A DNA stretch of 64,000 nt, from NCBI GenBank assembly GCA_041937175.2, contig CP166615.1, positions 3,904,001 to 3,968,000 on the forward strand, given 5' to 3'. The position numbers are program-made. Positions 15,001 to 24,000 of the stretch are shown in pieces. Origin of the DNA: Limnothrix sp. BL-A-16. Its GTDB lineage: Bacteria > Cyanobacteriota > Cyanobacteriia > CACIAM-69d. The number at the start of each line of letters is the position of its first letter. The first letter of the stretch is position 1.

Positions 15001-18000
15001 GCTGACCCCCGAGGAACTGCAAGAGCTGCCGGCCTTTGCCCGGGAAGCGGCTGCCCAGCCCCAAAATCCAGCCGAATTGACCAATCCCCCCAACTCCAAT
15101 TCCGGGAGCGCCAATGATCTGTTCAATCGCTTAGGCTTGGGCAGTTCGTCACCGTCCGTTGGTCGCGGAGCCGCCGCCGATCCCTTCAATACCTTTGGTG
15201 GCGCAGCGGGTAACCAGGGGCGTTCCAACAGTCGCATGGGCGATCGGGCCGCGAACCGGTTTGAGAATAATCCCAATAACAACCCCTATAACAACTCCTA
15301 CATCAATCCCTATAACGATTACGCTGGCTGGGATCAGTTCCAAAATCCGCCTCCCCGTCCCAATGGTGGCGATCGCGGTCGTCGGGGCCGCCAGCCCAAC
15401 GGTCAGTCCCGATCGCCCGTTGCAGCAACCCCCGCCACCGCCGCCGATCGCCTGGCCAAATCTACCGCCAACGTTGCGATCGCCCAATTTCGAGATCAAT
15501 GGCGAATGGCGGCCGGTCTTCAGTCCCTGGCCAGCGGTCTGAACCCGGAACCCACCGATCGCCCCGGTAACTACACCTTTAACCCCAACCTGGTGAGCAG
15601 CAACGCCACCCAAGGCCGCCTGAGCCAACTGGCCGATTGGGTGAAACGGGTCAACGATCTCCCCATGCGCAACGCAGATGGATCCCTGTTGCCGGGTACG
15701 GGCAAAGAATTAAACGGCGTTTTCCGCGACATGCTCACCGTCGGAGACTCCATTCAAAAGAAAGACACCCCGATCCAATGGCGCAAATTTGCTGACCTGC
15801 GGGCTTGCACCACCCTGAGCGCCAACCCGCCCCAACCGATCCGCTTGGTTGTCTTGGTGGGCGATCGGGGACTGGTGGCCCCCGGTTTGAACCCCGTGCG
15901 GTTGGTGCAAAGCTCCGGCTACTCAGCCTTGGATGACGAGGCGATCGCCTTTTTGACCCAACAGCTCACCGGCAAAAAACTCTCCGATCGCCCGGGTTAT
16001 CTGATCCATATCTACACCCTGACCTATCCCCCTTGCAGCAGCGCCAATCCCAGTCCAACCCCTAGCCCCACATCCAGTCCAACCCCTAGCCCTACACCCA
16101 GCCCCACACCCACCACCAACGAAAGCCCCTCATCACCCCCCAGCGAAACTCCGGCTCCCACCGGCCCATCGCCCTAGCATTGGCAACGGCCACCCTTTCG
16201 CCATCCCTGTTTGTCCTCCGATTGATCGAGTACGTTCTAGCGAAAGTAATCGAAAAAACCGGTTGCCCCCAGCGATCGCCCCGCGCCAGAGTCAGCCGAC
16301 TGGGTAAAATCAACCCACCTCCCTACTCAGGATTTTGCGAGAACTCTGAAATCGTAATGGCAACCAGCATTTTTCAATTCAGACAAAAAGATCGCCGTCC
16401 CTGGCTGCGGGTCATTCTGCAACTGCGCGGCTCCGTTGTACCCACCATTGCGCCCCGTGTGCTGTTTTGTGGAACCTTTGCCGCAGTTGTGAGTTGGTTA
16501 CATGCCCTGAAAGTTCCCGTTGCCCAACCGGGCTGGGCGAATTTAATTCCCAGCGTGGTGCTGGGGTTGCTATTGGTTTTCCGAACCAATACGGCCTATG
16601 AGCGGTTTTGGGAAGGGCGCAAACTTTGGGGCGGAATTGTGAACACGTCCCGTAACCTGGGGCGACAAATCTGGGTGGCAATTGACGAATCTACGCCAGA
16701 AGTTCGGGAACAAAAAATTTCAGCCCTGAATCTAATTGCTGCCTTTGGCATTGCCACCAAGCAACATTTACGGGGGGCATCCATAACTGAAGCGGTTGCT
16801 GATTTGGTGGAGCCGAGTGTGCTGGCTAATTTGCAAACGACTAACCATGTACCCCTCGATTTATCAGTACGAATTGCCGCTTTTCTAGAGGAGCAGCGCG
16901 ATCGCGGTAACCTCAATCCGTATCAACTGGCTTCCATGCACCGTCTGCTTGATGTGCTAGTGGATTCCTTGGGAGGCTGCGAGCGAATTTTACGAACGCC
17001 CATGCCCTTTGCCTATGCCATCCACCTGCGGCAATTGCTATTAATCTACTGCCTGCTTTTGCCCTTTGAATTGGTAGCTAAAGTGGGCTGGTGGACAGGA
17101 TTACTGGTTGCCATTATCTCCTTCACTCTGTTTGGAATTGAAGAGATTGGCGAAGAAATCGAAAATCCCTTTGGCACGGATCCAAACGATTTGCCGCTAG
17201 ATGCCATTTGCAACACCGTTCGCCAAAATATGCAAGATTTGAGTGAAATCGAACCCCGCGCGGTCGATGTGCGATCGTTGCCCTGACCCTCCAATCGTCT
17301 TGTAGTGCAGGTTTCAACCTGCACCATCCTGCGCTCCGGTGCGAGCTAAAGCTCACACTACAAGCGTTGTGCGGCCGTAGCTATAATTGTCATGGTGCTT
17401 TCTGCGTTCACCTTTTCTCATTTACTTTTTGACTCACGCCATGACTCAGCAACCGACCTACGGCCCACACAATCCCCATCCCCTGTCGCAATTGCGGACG
17501 GAGTTGGTGTGGGAAGGGAAGTATGACGAGTATGGCAACCGGCGGGAGGTGGACATTGCGGGCTGCGCGATGCCGATGCAAAAAATTGAGAGCATTGATG
17601 AGCCACGGCGAGAAGCAGAAGCCAAGAAGCAATTGACACTTTTTGAACAACAAAATCAGCGGCAAGATGATTTTCGAAATCGGCTGATTTGGGGCGATAA
17701 CAAGCTAGTAATGGCTTCGTTGTTGAAGGAATTTAAGGGCAAGGTAGATTTGATTTATATTGATCCGCCGTTTGATGTGGGCGCGGATTTTACGATGAAA
17801 ATGCCTATTGGGGAAGATGAAGATGCATTCACCAAAGAACAATCCGCTTTAGAAATGGTTGCTTATCGCGACACTTGGGGAAAAGGAACAGATTCATATC
17901 TTCATATGATGTATGAACGCCTAGTTCTCATGAAGGAACTCCTGAGTGATTCGGGTAGTATTTATGTTCATTGTGATTGGCGAGTTAATAGCTTTTTAAG

Positions 18001-21000: not shown

Positions 21001-24000
21001 ATGGGGCCTGCGGTGTCTAAAACGAAGGCGCTGGACAATGGAGCGGCCCTGCGCGATCGAATCATCACCCATCGGCGAGTGATGGTGCTGAATGATGAGG
21101 CGCACCATGTGTGGGACTCGGGTTCGGCATGGAATGAAGCAATTCGTTGGCTGCACGAAACCCTTGTGGCCCGCAGCGGTTGCTCCTTGGTGGCGCAATT
21201 GGATTTTTCAGCAACTCCCAAGGACAACAAGGGTCAACTGTTTAAGCACATTATCTGTGATACGCCCTTGGGAGAAGCGGTGGACGCAGGTATCGTCAAA
21301 ACACCGCTAATCGGGGCTGCCAGCCAAAACTTACAAGAGCAACCTGATGATAATGCGGCCTATCGCTGGGAACGGCATTTATTGTTGGGCTATGAACGCT
21401 GGAAAGCTAGCAGAGCAGAATGGGAGCCTAGCGGGAAAAAACCACTGCTGTTTGTCATGTGTGAAGACACGGAAGCGGCTGATCAAATTACGCAACGCTT
21501 CAACACTGATCCTCTATTTGAGCAACTAAATGGCAAAACGATTAACCTACACACCAACCTAAAGGGCAAGCTCAAGAAAGTGGGGCGAGGCAAAGAAGCT
21601 CGCCATGAGTTTGTCGAAGATGAAAAGGCAATTAGCGATGAAGACCTGAAGGCATTACGCCAACTAAGTCGTGAGCTAGATAGCAACACCAGCCCCTATT
21701 TCTGCATTGTGTCGGTGTTGATGTTGCGAGAAGGGTGGGACGTGCGGAATGTGACAACGATCGTGCCGCTGCGATCCTACAGTTCAAAAGCCAATATTCT
21801 GCCGGAGCAAACCCTAGGGCGTGGTTTACGCCGTATGACTCCGCCGGGCCAGGCGAATGAGTTAGTGACAGTGGTTGAACATCCCGCCTTTGCTAGCCTT
21901 TACCAGCAGGAATTGGCTCAAGAAGGGCTGCCATTAGAAATTGTGGAACTTGATCGGGTTCCTAAAACAACAATCTCAATTTTTCCTGATCCATCTCATA
22001 AGGATCTTGAAGCCCTAGAGATTCCAATTCCATCGCTGTTAGCGGGCTTTCGGATTGTGCCAAAGCTCGAGGGACTAACTATTCAGGACGTGAAAAAAGC
22101 CTTCAAGCCCTATCAGCCTCTACCCTTAAATCAATCATCAAGTCTAAGCATAATTCAATATGAAGGACGACATCTTTTTACAGGTGAAATCGTAGAAAAA
22201 ACGGAACTCAATCTTCCACTGCTTGCCTCAGGAGTTGGAGCAGTCTCCTATTATGTCAAGCAATTAGAAACTATCTGTAAGTTACGAGGATTGCATCAGC
22301 TTATAGCTCCTCTAATTCAGACTTTTTTAGAAGAAATTCTTTTTGCTCAAAAAGCAACATTGTTTGACCCTCAACTGGTGAGCCGCTTGGCTGATTCTGA
22401 TGTGGGTGAACACTTGCGGGCGGTGTTTGTACCTCTGATCCGCAGTCGCACCACGACGATGGAGGAGCGGCTGATGGTTGAGCCACCAAAGTTGTTAAAG
22501 CACTGGAAACCGTTTCAGGTGACCTTGAGCGATCGCCGTCCAGCTTTGCCAGCAGCGAAAACGCTGTTTAATCTGGTGACTTGCAATCGTGAACTCGAAG
22601 TGGCGGTGGCAAAGTTTTGCGATCGCGCTCCTGATGTGGTGGCCTTTGCTAAAAATGCGGGTTCTCAGGCCTTGCGAATCGATTATTTGGCCCAAGGCGA
22701 TCGGCTGGCGTTCTACACACCAGATTTCTTTGTGCGGACAAAGGATGGCGGTTGCTATTTGGTGGAAACCAAGGGGCGCGAGGATCGGGATGTGCCGTTG
22801 AAGGCTAGGGCTGCGATCGCTTGGTGTCAGGCGGCTTCTGGGGTGAATGATGGGGTGATGACTGAGGTTTTCACTACGAGCAGAAAGTGGCAGTACCTTT
22901 ACATTCCGCAAGGGGTGTTTGAGCGAATGGCAGGTGACTCTGTGGCAGAACTAGCGCGGGCTTGTGAACCTGCCTTGCAAAATCTGCTGCAATCTGAAGA
23001 GTTTCAGGACTTACCGCTGTTTGCCAACTTAGGTCAGTCTGATGAGGAAATATCCCGAACGGATGACATTGTTGATCCAAGTATTTTGAACCAGTTACCG
23101 AACCGTTATCGCTGGGCAGCCGATCAAGCGATCATGCTCTATCAATTTTTTGAAAACAAAATAGGAATGAGCTATGCACCAGTCTTTACACCTTTATTGG
23201 GGTCAATTGACGAAGTAGCTAAAGGATTATTGACTCGACGGCTTCAGTCGGTAATTCCTGCAAATGTCAATGATCAAAAAGCTTGGTTTTCACCTGATTT
23301 GACCGTCATAGATCGAAAGGCTGAAGGATATTATCGTAAGCTTGCCCAAAACCTCAAACGCACTTTAGTGTTTAATAATGGAGTTTCATTAATTGGGCTA
23401 CTTCGGTCATGCTTAGACTATGCTCTCAATGATCCAGTTTTAATTGGAGGGGTGTTTGAATCTCTCAGGTCTACATTACGATTCCAGGGCAATCGAGCGT
23501 TGCTAGAAACCATCACTCGGATCAACCAATTTCGAAACACCTACATCGCTCACCAAGAGTCAGAATTAACTGACCGAGACTTAGCGAAACAAGAACTACA
23601 AGTTTGGATTGAGGCACTGCACAGAATTGCAACTGATAGAAGTGATTCGTTGCTTAAGGATTGAGAAATTTAATGATCATAGAGACTAAGTGGCTCGATC
23701 GCCTGGCCCTTTGGCTGCCGGGGACTTTTGAAAATCGGGAACAGGCCCTAGCGGATCCCACTTGGTATGTGGGTGTGCGACTGTGGCATCGATCGATCGG
23801 GGTCTTTGGGCCCGGCCACTTGGGGATTTATGCGGAACAGGCCAGCGCCCCCACCTTCGCCAAAATCTATCGCCCCAGGGTGTTTCAGATTTCCCCCACC
23901 TCCGATCCTGATTTCCCGCTGGCGGTGGCCTACTTTGCCCTGCGACAGCCGGAGCGGTGGCGAGGTGCGGGTTTAGATCCCGCTATTTTGGAAACCCTGA

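Follow-up and report, generated by a model that had tools for sequence, protein, structure and literature searches.

The window, a stretch of 64,000 nucleotides of the Limnothrix sp. BL-A-16 genome, contains a type III restriction-modification (RM) operon in which xisH and xisI are the only genes between the methyltransferase gene mod and the restriction gene res, with all four genes on one strand (Table 1). In relatives the same slot takes differing small toxin-like cassettes and the XisH-XisI pair (XisHI) thus looks like a self-maintaining hitch-hiker rather than a nitrogen-fixation switch. Judged from gene comparisons, we see about an even chance that XisHI is a selfish nuclease-plus-antidote cassette that rides in defence operons. 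It would be an autonomous two-gene unit similar to a toxin-immunity or toxin-antitoxin (TA) module: XisH, a predicted active PD-(D/E)xK nuclease, would be the potentially harmful half, and XisI, a translationally coupled and tightly co-evolving partner, would most likely bind XisH and restrain or direct it. The cassette would live and spread as a passenger that settles at gene junctions, often in horizontally mobile restriction/defence operons, where it would be transcribed by read-through from the host operon and move along with it. Toxicity of XisH, neutralisation by XisI and an addiction-type maintenance are inferred.

The gene order mod, xisH, xisI, res was obtained by profile searches with Pfam and PADLOC, and the pair is indeed wedged between the methylase and the ResIII enzyme, as the genome-wide survey's note had it. 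The ATG of xisH is 2 nt past the mod stop codon. Both proteins are full-length matches to their families: XisH to PF08814 with 167.3 bits (cut-off 25; profile positions 1-133 of 134) and XisI to PF08869 with 131.8 bits (cut-off 25). The start of Res is likely the ATG at 20207, and Res residues 828-885 have a weak Pfam match to a TnsA-like nuclease.

Table 1. Features of the inserted island and its RM operon (positions within the window)
Feature	Position	Strand	Evidence or remark
Inserted island, 6448 nt (6.4 kb), mod-xisH-xisI-res	17243..23690	+	stands where the ancestral bestrophin/cpeT junction had 185 nt
Type III DNA methyltransferase (Mod), 679 aa	17387..19426	+	PF01555 N6_N4_Mtase, 160 bits; PADLOC MTase_III PDLC03633, 773 bits, residues 21-675
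xisH, 138-aa predicted nuclease of PD-(D/E)xK fold	19429..19845	+	PF08814
xisI, 110 aa	19833..20165	+	PF08869; 13-nt overlap with xisH
Type III restriction subunit (Res), 1161-aa ORF	20179..23664	+	PF04851 ResIII, 49 bits; PADLOC REase_III, 86.6 bits

The window pair came as part of the mod-xisH-xisI-res island. In two genomes of the same genus (G401 and G402) the flanks match at 70-95% identity, but the island is absent and replaced by 133-186 nt; the breakpoints were taken from the BLAST alignment against G402. Within the island, the GC content falls to 0.40-0.44. Filled and empty alleles of one site in close relatives were also found for two further pairs of this genome, p7 and p1. Locus p7 reads PRTase-XisH-XisI-unk103-Dcm here, PRTase-unk103-Dcm in G401 and PRTase-Dcm in G402, and at the p1 site of G220, rph and surE overlap and there is no pair.

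The slot between mod and res was surveyed in 41 loci with a Res related to the window Res (54-88% identity). All 22 readable cyanobacterial slots have cargo: XisH plus XisI in 11 (the window and 10 others), XisI alone in five and other genes (Uma2, DUF4258-DUF2283, HEPN or PIN) in six. Altogether, the unrelated cargo accepted by the mod-res slot comprises DUF4258/PBECR2-DUF2283, PIN, HEPN, Fic, M78+DUF4411 and Uma2. In six non-cyanobacterial, basal relatives (L022, L031, L039, L041-L043) mod and res abut or overlap, with no cargo; in L022, L031 and L043 the overlap is ATGA. These cargo-free relatives, and the exchange for unrelated genes, suggest that XisHI is cargo and not a component of the RM system. 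Cargo turnover in the slot is fast: seven cargo states occur in one 10-row Res subclade (SH-aLRT 100 in a quick tree), and the XisHI pairs of the slot are drawn from at least three lineages, with lineage B being 71-73% identical to a non-slot paralogue of this genome (p4), compared to about 44% identity to lineage A of the window. Within lineage A, XisHI of the window and of locus L030 are 81-84% identical and the Res proteins 80%; divergence of the pair thus resembles that of Res, and part of the pattern is therefore co-inheritance and not mobility.

Of 401 genomes sampled from the phylum, 124 have XisH, usually in many copies. The copy number of the Xis genes is 8-11 here and reaches the scoring cap, and thus at least 10-11 matches, in many of the sampled genomes. 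Among plasmid records 40 of 72,556 have XisH, among phage records none of 50,697. At 14 of 30 XisH loci taken from the whole phylum, a gene of TA, Uma2, nuclease or RM type lies no farther than 1.5 kb away. Some pairs are isolated among housekeeping genes, for example at dnaN|holB-like and htpG|clpB, and these solitary pairs count against the cassette reading.

Where XisH and XisI are not found together, it is mostly XisH that goes and XisI that stays. Four orthologous loci of G402 still have a Xis gene: p5 has both, whereas p1, p3 and p4 have XisI without XisH, and at p4 XisI is 96% identical while XisH is reduced to its last 21 residues. Limnothrix itself has three lone XisI and no lone XisH, and the 401-genome sample has five genomes with XisI only and none with a solid XisH only. 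In the 84 genomes that stay below the scoring caps, which come from related organisms, XisI is more numerous than XisH in 52, equal in 21 and less numerous in 11 (totals 416 versus 305). Such loss of XisH with retention of XisI would be predicted were XisH the harmful partner. The 11 genomes with more XisH than XisI matches are a point against the cassette reading.

The pair is found in further defence loci: Euhalothece pEu2 has the type I order hsdM-XisH-XisI-Uma2-hsdS-hsdR, a plasmid DISARM locus has XisHI between drmA and a methyltransferase, and a plasmid DUF1156 system also has the pair embedded. These in-operon positions on the same strand, together with the 11 type III loci with both genes and the five with XisI, and with the DNA methyltransferases two genes away from p5 and p7, favour an RM-linked back-up defence, in which a latent XisH would be held silent by XisI, the RM complex or both, and be freed when a phage disables restriction. 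The precedent is PrrC, a nuclease silenced by its linked type I RM system (PMC1484252, PMC2610378). We consider such a role improbable for XisHI: the six basal mod-res relatives are free of cargo, the same slot takes unrelated genes, an RM gene (GmrSD) flanks only one of the 30 phylum loci, XisH is dispensable at three G402 loci and no PADLOC model matches XisH or XisI. The survey had proposed a mobile TA-like or defence-accessory module with XisH as the nuclease. The first half of this proposal gains from the exchangeability of the cassette, slots common to TA-type genes, the intact PD-(D/E)xK site, purifying selection and the asymmetric decay; the defence-accessory half is weakened by the same cargo and RM counts that argue against a PrrC-like role.

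The nuclease signature D39/E58/K60, previously noted in four paralogues, is invariant in 46 of 46 aligned XisH proteins, including all seven full-length paralogues of this genome. XisH and XisI are both under purifying selection (dN/dS 0.02-0.24 wherever dS could be estimated). The AF2 model of XisH (pLDDT 89.1) has among its fold neighbours the XisH structure 2okf (Z 23.3), AF1548 (Z 9.0), CdiA-CT (4g6v; Z 8.2, rmsd 3.4, 109 residues aligned) and the T6SS effectors 9oz0 (Z 5.6) and 7dym (Z 5.4); CdiA-CT, 9oz0 and 7dym are nuclease toxins with immunity partners. The XisI model (pLDDT 94.6) is compact and well folded, but has good matches only to XisI structures (Z 19.0 for 3d7q and 16.9; best non-XisI match Z 5.5), and thus no informative fold neighbour. 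No DNA-binding or disordered antitoxin region can be recognised in XisI, and for an antidote the lack of an antitoxin region is a point against. Long or fused forms of either protein were not found, which counts as weak evidence.

The PDB entries of XisH and XisI are single proteins only, in agreement with the survey. Complex prediction of the two returned an ipSAE of 0.36 (runs 0.36, 0.38, 0.32) versus 0.00 for the best of three controls, with partner pLDDT of at least 90 and at least 93% of contacts shared between runs. Of 157 solved complexes 116 attain the pass mark, as do 2 of 215 mismatched pairs, and scores of 0.60 or lower include 18 of the 157 solved complexes and both passing mismatches; at this level, the model gives a weak hint that XisH and XisI bind each other.

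The whole genome has eight XisH matches and 11 XisI matches, giving eight pairs and three lone XisI; the first pairs lie at 54 kb and 610 kb, the last at 3.92 Mb. XisH is always the first gene and the overlap is 13-31 nt in all eight pairs; one XisH, at p2, is a 64-aa stump. Counts, gene order, overlaps and the stump are as the survey had described them, and its statement that the pairs are low in GC is true for those at 0.40-0.47 (genome 0.552) but not for the truncated pair, which has 0.569. For the neighbourhoods, the survey had counted 12 of the 32 genes within two positions of the pairs as TA/RM/nuclease-type; a recount from independent ORF calls and Pfam names gave a raw count of 15 of 32, with Uma2 included. 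Uma2 lies within 2 kb of five of the 11 Xis loci, with 0.62 expected (permutation, P ~0.0002).

The junctions that receive the pair are tight and even overlap in empty alleles (mod|res with ATGA, rph|surE), the presence/absence polymorphism at p7 is cassette-sized and one slot is filled by different XisHI lineages. All three observations would fit a homing-type mobile cassette, with XisH cutting empty junctions, repair copying the cassette in and XisI protecting or guiding. This mechanism is compatible with the selfish cassette, but we regard it as unlikely: seven of the eight pairs have no flanking direct repeats (p2 alone has a perfect repeat, of 45 nt), the empty p7 site is a 63-nt spacer rather than an overlap and the window pair arrived within a larger island with breakpoints inside neighbouring genes.

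The sole experimental function of the family, as cited in PMC4874684 and PMC4853749, is control of XisF-mediated excision of the fdxN element. In Anabaena XisHI acts with a recombinase (Ramaswamy 1997, as described by citing papers), which is a point against the selfish cassette. That XisH and XisI serve a site-specific recombinase here, as accessory or directionality factors in the excision of another element, is very improbable, even though two Nostoc plasmids have a tyrosine recombinase as the second gene downstream of XisHI (within a Tn7-like element): nifD (best match 45.8 bits, cut-off 653) and nifH (217.5 bits, cut-off 394) have only paralogues in the whole genome, there is a single Resolvase-domain gene for eight pairs (C1:292693, over 230 kb away from any pair), no recombinase was found within the ~6 kb examined on each side of all eight pairs and Xis copy number does not track recombinases. 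We thus concur with the survey that the genome is nif-less, that its serine recombinase is not beside a pair and that the fdxN-excision role is inapplicable.

A broader and rather doubtful proposition is that XisHI, Uma2 and small TA-type genes may all belong to one class of integrase-less cassettes that prefer tight junctions in RM/defence operons (type III, type I, DISARM, DUF1156). XisH would then be a second-line effector, freed when the RM complex is disturbed, and cyanobacterial RM operons would be modular, fast-swapping platforms rather than fixed two-gene systems.

What multi-copy XisHI does in non-heterocystous organisms without xisF has been a published question since at least 2009 (PMC2674450, PMC4853749). 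XisHI without nif is already in print; new here are the island insertion, the mod-res cargo slot, the defence-locus contexts, the invariant D39/E58/K60 with purifying selection on both genes, the asymmetric loss of XisH and the weakly supported prediction of XisH-XisI binding. The evidence leads to a concrete and cheap question, namely whether XisH is a toxic nuclease neutralised by XisI, and it reveals, in one family of type III RM operons, a slot whose cargo is exchanged rapidly. If the selfish cassette is confirmed, a widespread cassette type would join the toxin-antitoxin and defence repertoire and RM operons would be shown to be vehicles for selfish cassettes.

Among known systems, XisH/XisI of the Anabaena/Nostoc fdxN element (PF08814, PF08869; PDB 2inb, 2okf, 3d7q, 2nlv, 2nwv, 2nvm) agree with the pairs described here in families, gene order, overlap and PD-(D/E)xK core. 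The Limnothrix pairs differ in having no fdxN/nif element and no adjacent XisF-type recombinase, in their many copies and in the pair within a type III RM operon. Assignment to the XisF-XisH-XisI excision system was rejected, as both the large serine recombinase in the element and the interrupted nitrogen-fixation gene are missing. The PrrC/RloC anticodon nucleases, which are linked to type I RM systems, share a nuclease gene embedded in an RM operon. However, XisH has a different fold, its only Pfam match is PF08814 and neither Pfam nor PADLOC found an ABC-ATPase or anticodon-nuclease domain; with the rare RM link and the many cargos of the RM slot, membership was rejected. Variable islets, integration hot spots and free-standing homing-endonuclease genes are likewise present or absent at fixed junctions and have their cargo swapped among close relatives, but XisHI has no integrase, and att-like repeats or target duplications are absent at seven of the eight pairs. 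Type II toxin-antitoxin and polymorphic toxin-immunity pairs (CdiA-CT/CdiI, PDB 4g6v) differ in that the fold of XisI is not one known from antitoxins or immunity proteins, and the likeness of XisHI to them is known here from genes and models. It consists of a small overlapping co-directional unit with a nuclease-fold first gene, a patchy, multi-copy and plasmid-borne distribution with the second gene in orphan excess, and slots common to PIN, HEPN, HicAB, MazF and MNT/HepT genes.

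Profile searches of the 4.56 Mb genome (two contigs, GC 0.552; gene calls from our own ORF heuristics) found eight XisH matches, one of them a stump of 64 aa, and 11 XisI matches. This amounts to eight XisHI pairs (p1, p2 and so on) and three lone XisI genes, the same counts as in the genome-wide survey's note; the absence of nitrogenase genes claimed there also holds, as all nifD and nifH matches are paralogues below the cut-off. The two genes of a pair overlap by 13-31 nt and the GC content of the pairs is 0.40-0.47, with the exception of the truncated pair p2 (0.569). No PADLOC model matched XisH or XisI.

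The flanks of the pair in the window are matched in two genomes of the same genus, G401 and G402, with a spacing between the bestrophin gene and cpeT of just 133-186 nt. Homology to G402 ends at window position 17242 and restarts at 23691: 6448 nt with mod, xisH, xisI and res stand in place of 185 nt, among them the 3' tail of the bestrophin gene and the 24 nt at the start of cpeT. The right breakpoint is at TGGCTCGATCGCC, and no repeats flanking the island were seen in the comparison with G402. The four genes were inserted as one block and thus XisHI arrived as a passenger of the restriction-modification (RM) operon. The first of the CpeT/CpcT-family ORFs downstream, its initial 24 nt swapped for island DNA, overlaps the res stop codon.

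Coordinates of the genes, repeats and unnamed ORFs at the island and at related loci
Feature	Position	Arrangement	Match
Mod	window 17387-19426	same strand as the other three	PADLOC MTase_III, 773 bits
XisH	window 19429-19845	same strand as mod, xisI and res	PF08814, 167 bits
XisI	window 19833-20165	13-nt overlap with xisH	PF08869, 132 bits
Res	window 20179-23664		ResIII; PADLOC REase_III, 86.6 bits; weak TnsA-like nuclease match
457-aa ORF	window 14804-16177	5' of the bestrophin gene; local GC high (0.60)	no Pfam or PADLOC match
CpeT/CpcT-family genes, two in tandem	window 23661-25017	downstream of the island	
Palindromic repeat	window 34881-34911 and 60962-60991; contig C1 55045-55075	C1 copy beside p1	core GGGGCAAGGGGTTTAAACCCCTTG
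Direct repeat at p2 (locus L002)	C1 609768-609812 and 610581-610625	begins directly after a DUF2283 gene	
Unnamed slot proteins, 241-274 aa	L026:4892-5617; L029:574-1314; L035:3987-4811; L045:478-1290	directly 3' of mod, then DUF2283 in all except L026	no Pfam match
151-aa ORF of G402	L100:1041-1496, minus strand	XisH position, upstream of the second XisI-family gene, rph/surE site	no Pfam match

Scanning genome contigs with Res identified 41 related loci (54-88% identity), mostly on metagenome-assembled contigs. In six non-cyanobacterial loci (L022, L031, L039, L041-L043) mod and res abut or overlap, in three of them by ATGA, and in the cyanobacterial clade every one of the 22 slots that could be read contains cargo between the two genes. 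This cargo is XisH plus XisI in 11 (window, L012, L016, L023, L030 with two tandem pairs, L033, L037, L044, L046, L049 and L051), XisI without XisH in five (L026, L029, L032, L035, L048) and free of either in six (L011, L014, L017, L020, L045, L047). Other cargo consists of Uma2 (11 loci), DUF4258/PBECR2-like proteins with DUF2283, HEPN, PIN and unnamed proteins of 241-274 aa; outside the cyanobacteria it is DUF3800, Fic, M78 with DUF4411, and DUF4258 with DUF2442. Cargo genes follow a common spacing: a stop codon, 2-8 nt, then ATG. The unnamed proteins may be an undescribed toxin family, as they occupy the place that DUF4258/PBECR2-like toxins have elsewhere.

By identity matrices, the XisHI pairs in the slot fall into at least three lineages. 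Lineage A has the window pair, L030a, L046 and L016 (68-85%) and, at about 56%, L037 and L049; lineage B has L023, L044 and L030b, and its closest relative in this genome is p4, a pair outside any slot (71-73%); lineage C has L012 and L033, and its XisI is also found alone behind DUF2283. In a quick tree, the cyanobacterial Res proteins form one clade (26 rows, SH-aLRT 99) with very short branches, and a single fully supported subclade of 10 rows has seven cargo states. Within lineage A, XisH and XisI of the window and L030 are 81-84% identical and Res is 80% identical; given this similar divergence, part of the pattern is co-inheritance.

Loss within the pairs falls on XisH. At p2, XisH is a stump and XisI is whole. 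In G402, the p4 homologue has an XisI of 96% identity and, of XisH, just the C-terminal 21 residues, and the p3 homologue has XisI at 89% and no XisH within 1.8 kb; p1 has a frameshifted XisI and a second XisI with no XisH, and p5 has kept both genes. At the p1 position, rph and surE overlap in another compared genome, G220. For p7 the genus has three states: xisHI with an unnamed gene of 103 aa, this gene alone, and empty. Among 401 sampled genomes of the phylum, XisH is present in 124 and XisI in 127, mostly in many copies, and both are missing from all 29 genomes of one small-genome family; five genomes have only XisI and none has a solid XisH alone. In the 84 genomes under the scoring ceiling, XisI is the more numerous in 52, the two are level in 21 and XisH leads in 11 (416 XisI versus 305 XisH in total), counts for which a sign test is over-optimistic because of related genomes and that ceiling. 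At p2, L032, L048, L029 and L035, where XisI is kept and XisH is decayed or absent, the genes just upstream are a DUF4258/PBECR2-DUF2283 pair. This arrangement has arisen in two unrelated XisI lineages and may be a three-gene variant or a repeated replacement of XisH.

In XisH, D5, H8, D39, E58, K60 and Q77, among others, are invariant in all 46 sequences. The XisH model (pLDDT 89.1) matches best the structure 2okf (Z 23.3), followed by AF1548 (9.0), the CdiA-CT toxin 4g6v (8.2), AF2093 (8.1), Can2 (7.8) and PaqCI (7.3). For XisI (pLDDT 94.6) the only good matches are XisI structures, the fold search giving nothing informative beyond them (next Z 5.5); there is a weak profile match to L14e (E 0.014), and the ESM Atlas, with PF08869 excluded, had no usable match. 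Our search found no long or fused forms of XisH, which is weak evidence. Both genes have dN/dS of 0.02-0.24 where dS could be estimated, dS being saturated in most pairs. Complex prediction hints weakly that XisH may bind XisI: ipSAE is 0.36 versus 0.00 for the best of three controls, with partner pLDDT of at least 90 and contact agreement between runs of at least 93%. Of 157 solved complexes 116 attain the mark used, as do two of 215 mismatched pairs, and scores up to 0.60 comprise only 18 of the 157 plus both mismatches. Contigs from RNA libraries (two runs of one study, 90-95% likeness) span xisH and bridge xisI into res; this is no proof of transcription, and gaps in their coverage are uninformative.

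The pairs of this genome lie in small islets with MNT/HepT, PIN, PBECR2-DUF2283, Uma2 and DNA methyltransferases, and by our own ORF calls such genes make up 15 of the 32 neighbours up to two positions away. Uma2 has 57 copies in the genome and is found within 2 kb of five of the 11 Xis loci, versus 0.62 expected from random placement (P ~0.0002). STAND-type NTPases (NB-ARC-TPR, CHAT-NACHT-TPR, NNH3-NACHT) adjoin lone XisI genes and some pairs (L008-L010, L002, L087, L089), a proximity that may reflect only shared variable islets. Among the 30 best-scoring XisH loci of the phylum sample, read 1.5 kb to each side, 14 have a toxin-antitoxin, Uma2, nuclease or RM-type gene, and several lie between pure housekeeping genes. 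XisH is present in 40 of 72,556 plasmid records and in none of 50,697 phage records. In the nine plasmid records inspected, pairs are found in a type I operon (hsdM-XisH-XisI-Uma2-hsdS-hsdR), in a DUF1156 system, between drmA of DISARM and a methyltransferase gene, next to a 'putative restriction enzyme' and, once, beside VapC and ParA. The Nostoc plasmids pNsp_b and pNPUN01 (L055, L056) carry XisHI within a Tn7-like element, which has TnsA, a Mu-type transposase, a tyrosine recombinase and 'four helix bundle' proteins.

The reading best supported is that XisHI is a nuclease-plus-antidote cassette that maintains itself and hitch-hikes at junctions between genes, in particular in mobile RM and defence operons; we infer every functional step of this reading and rate it an even call. 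That XisHI is instead a back-up nuclease linked to RM, like PrrC, an anticodon nuclease silenced by a linked type I RM system, is unlikely: the type I operon on a plasmid would suit it, and an RM gene (GmrSD) flanks only one of the 30 best XisH loci.

No likelier is a homing-type mobile cassette, which would be compatible with the nuclease-plus-antidote reading. A BLAST comparison of the 600 nt before each pair with the 600 nt after it found no scars of gene-end duplication at seven of the eight pairs, including the window pair; p2 alone is bracketed by a perfect direct repeat of 45 nt. The palindromic repeat beside p1, considered as a cassette end, was rejected since it is interspersed throughout the genome (157 BLAST hits); it is also present in G220, G401 and G402 and resembles a REP or terminator-like element. 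A role as canonical recombinase-accessory factors is quite improbable: the sole Resolvase-domain gene is distant from every pair, in line with the note's remark that the serine recombinase gene it lists is not next to a pair. What probability remains we reserve for something unforeseen.

Earlier papers place xisHI in unicellular and non-heterocystous strains, with a function there 'still to be disclosed' and a transcript start 33 bp upstream of xisH (PMC2674450), and report four XisH and seven XisI in Thiomargarita, which has no xisF (PMC4853749); the latter credits a model of an endonuclease with a directionality factor to Hwang 2014. XisH and Uma2 are listed among the PD-(D/E)xK families (PMC3424549), and XisH and XisI among the 'cloud' domains of eCIS (PMC11297309). 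In the literature searched, we found no paper that treats XisHI as a toxin-antitoxin or defence module. Set against these accounts, what is new is that a family of type III RM systems has a cargo slot, that XisHI is embedded in four kinds of defence operon, and that decay is specific to XisH.
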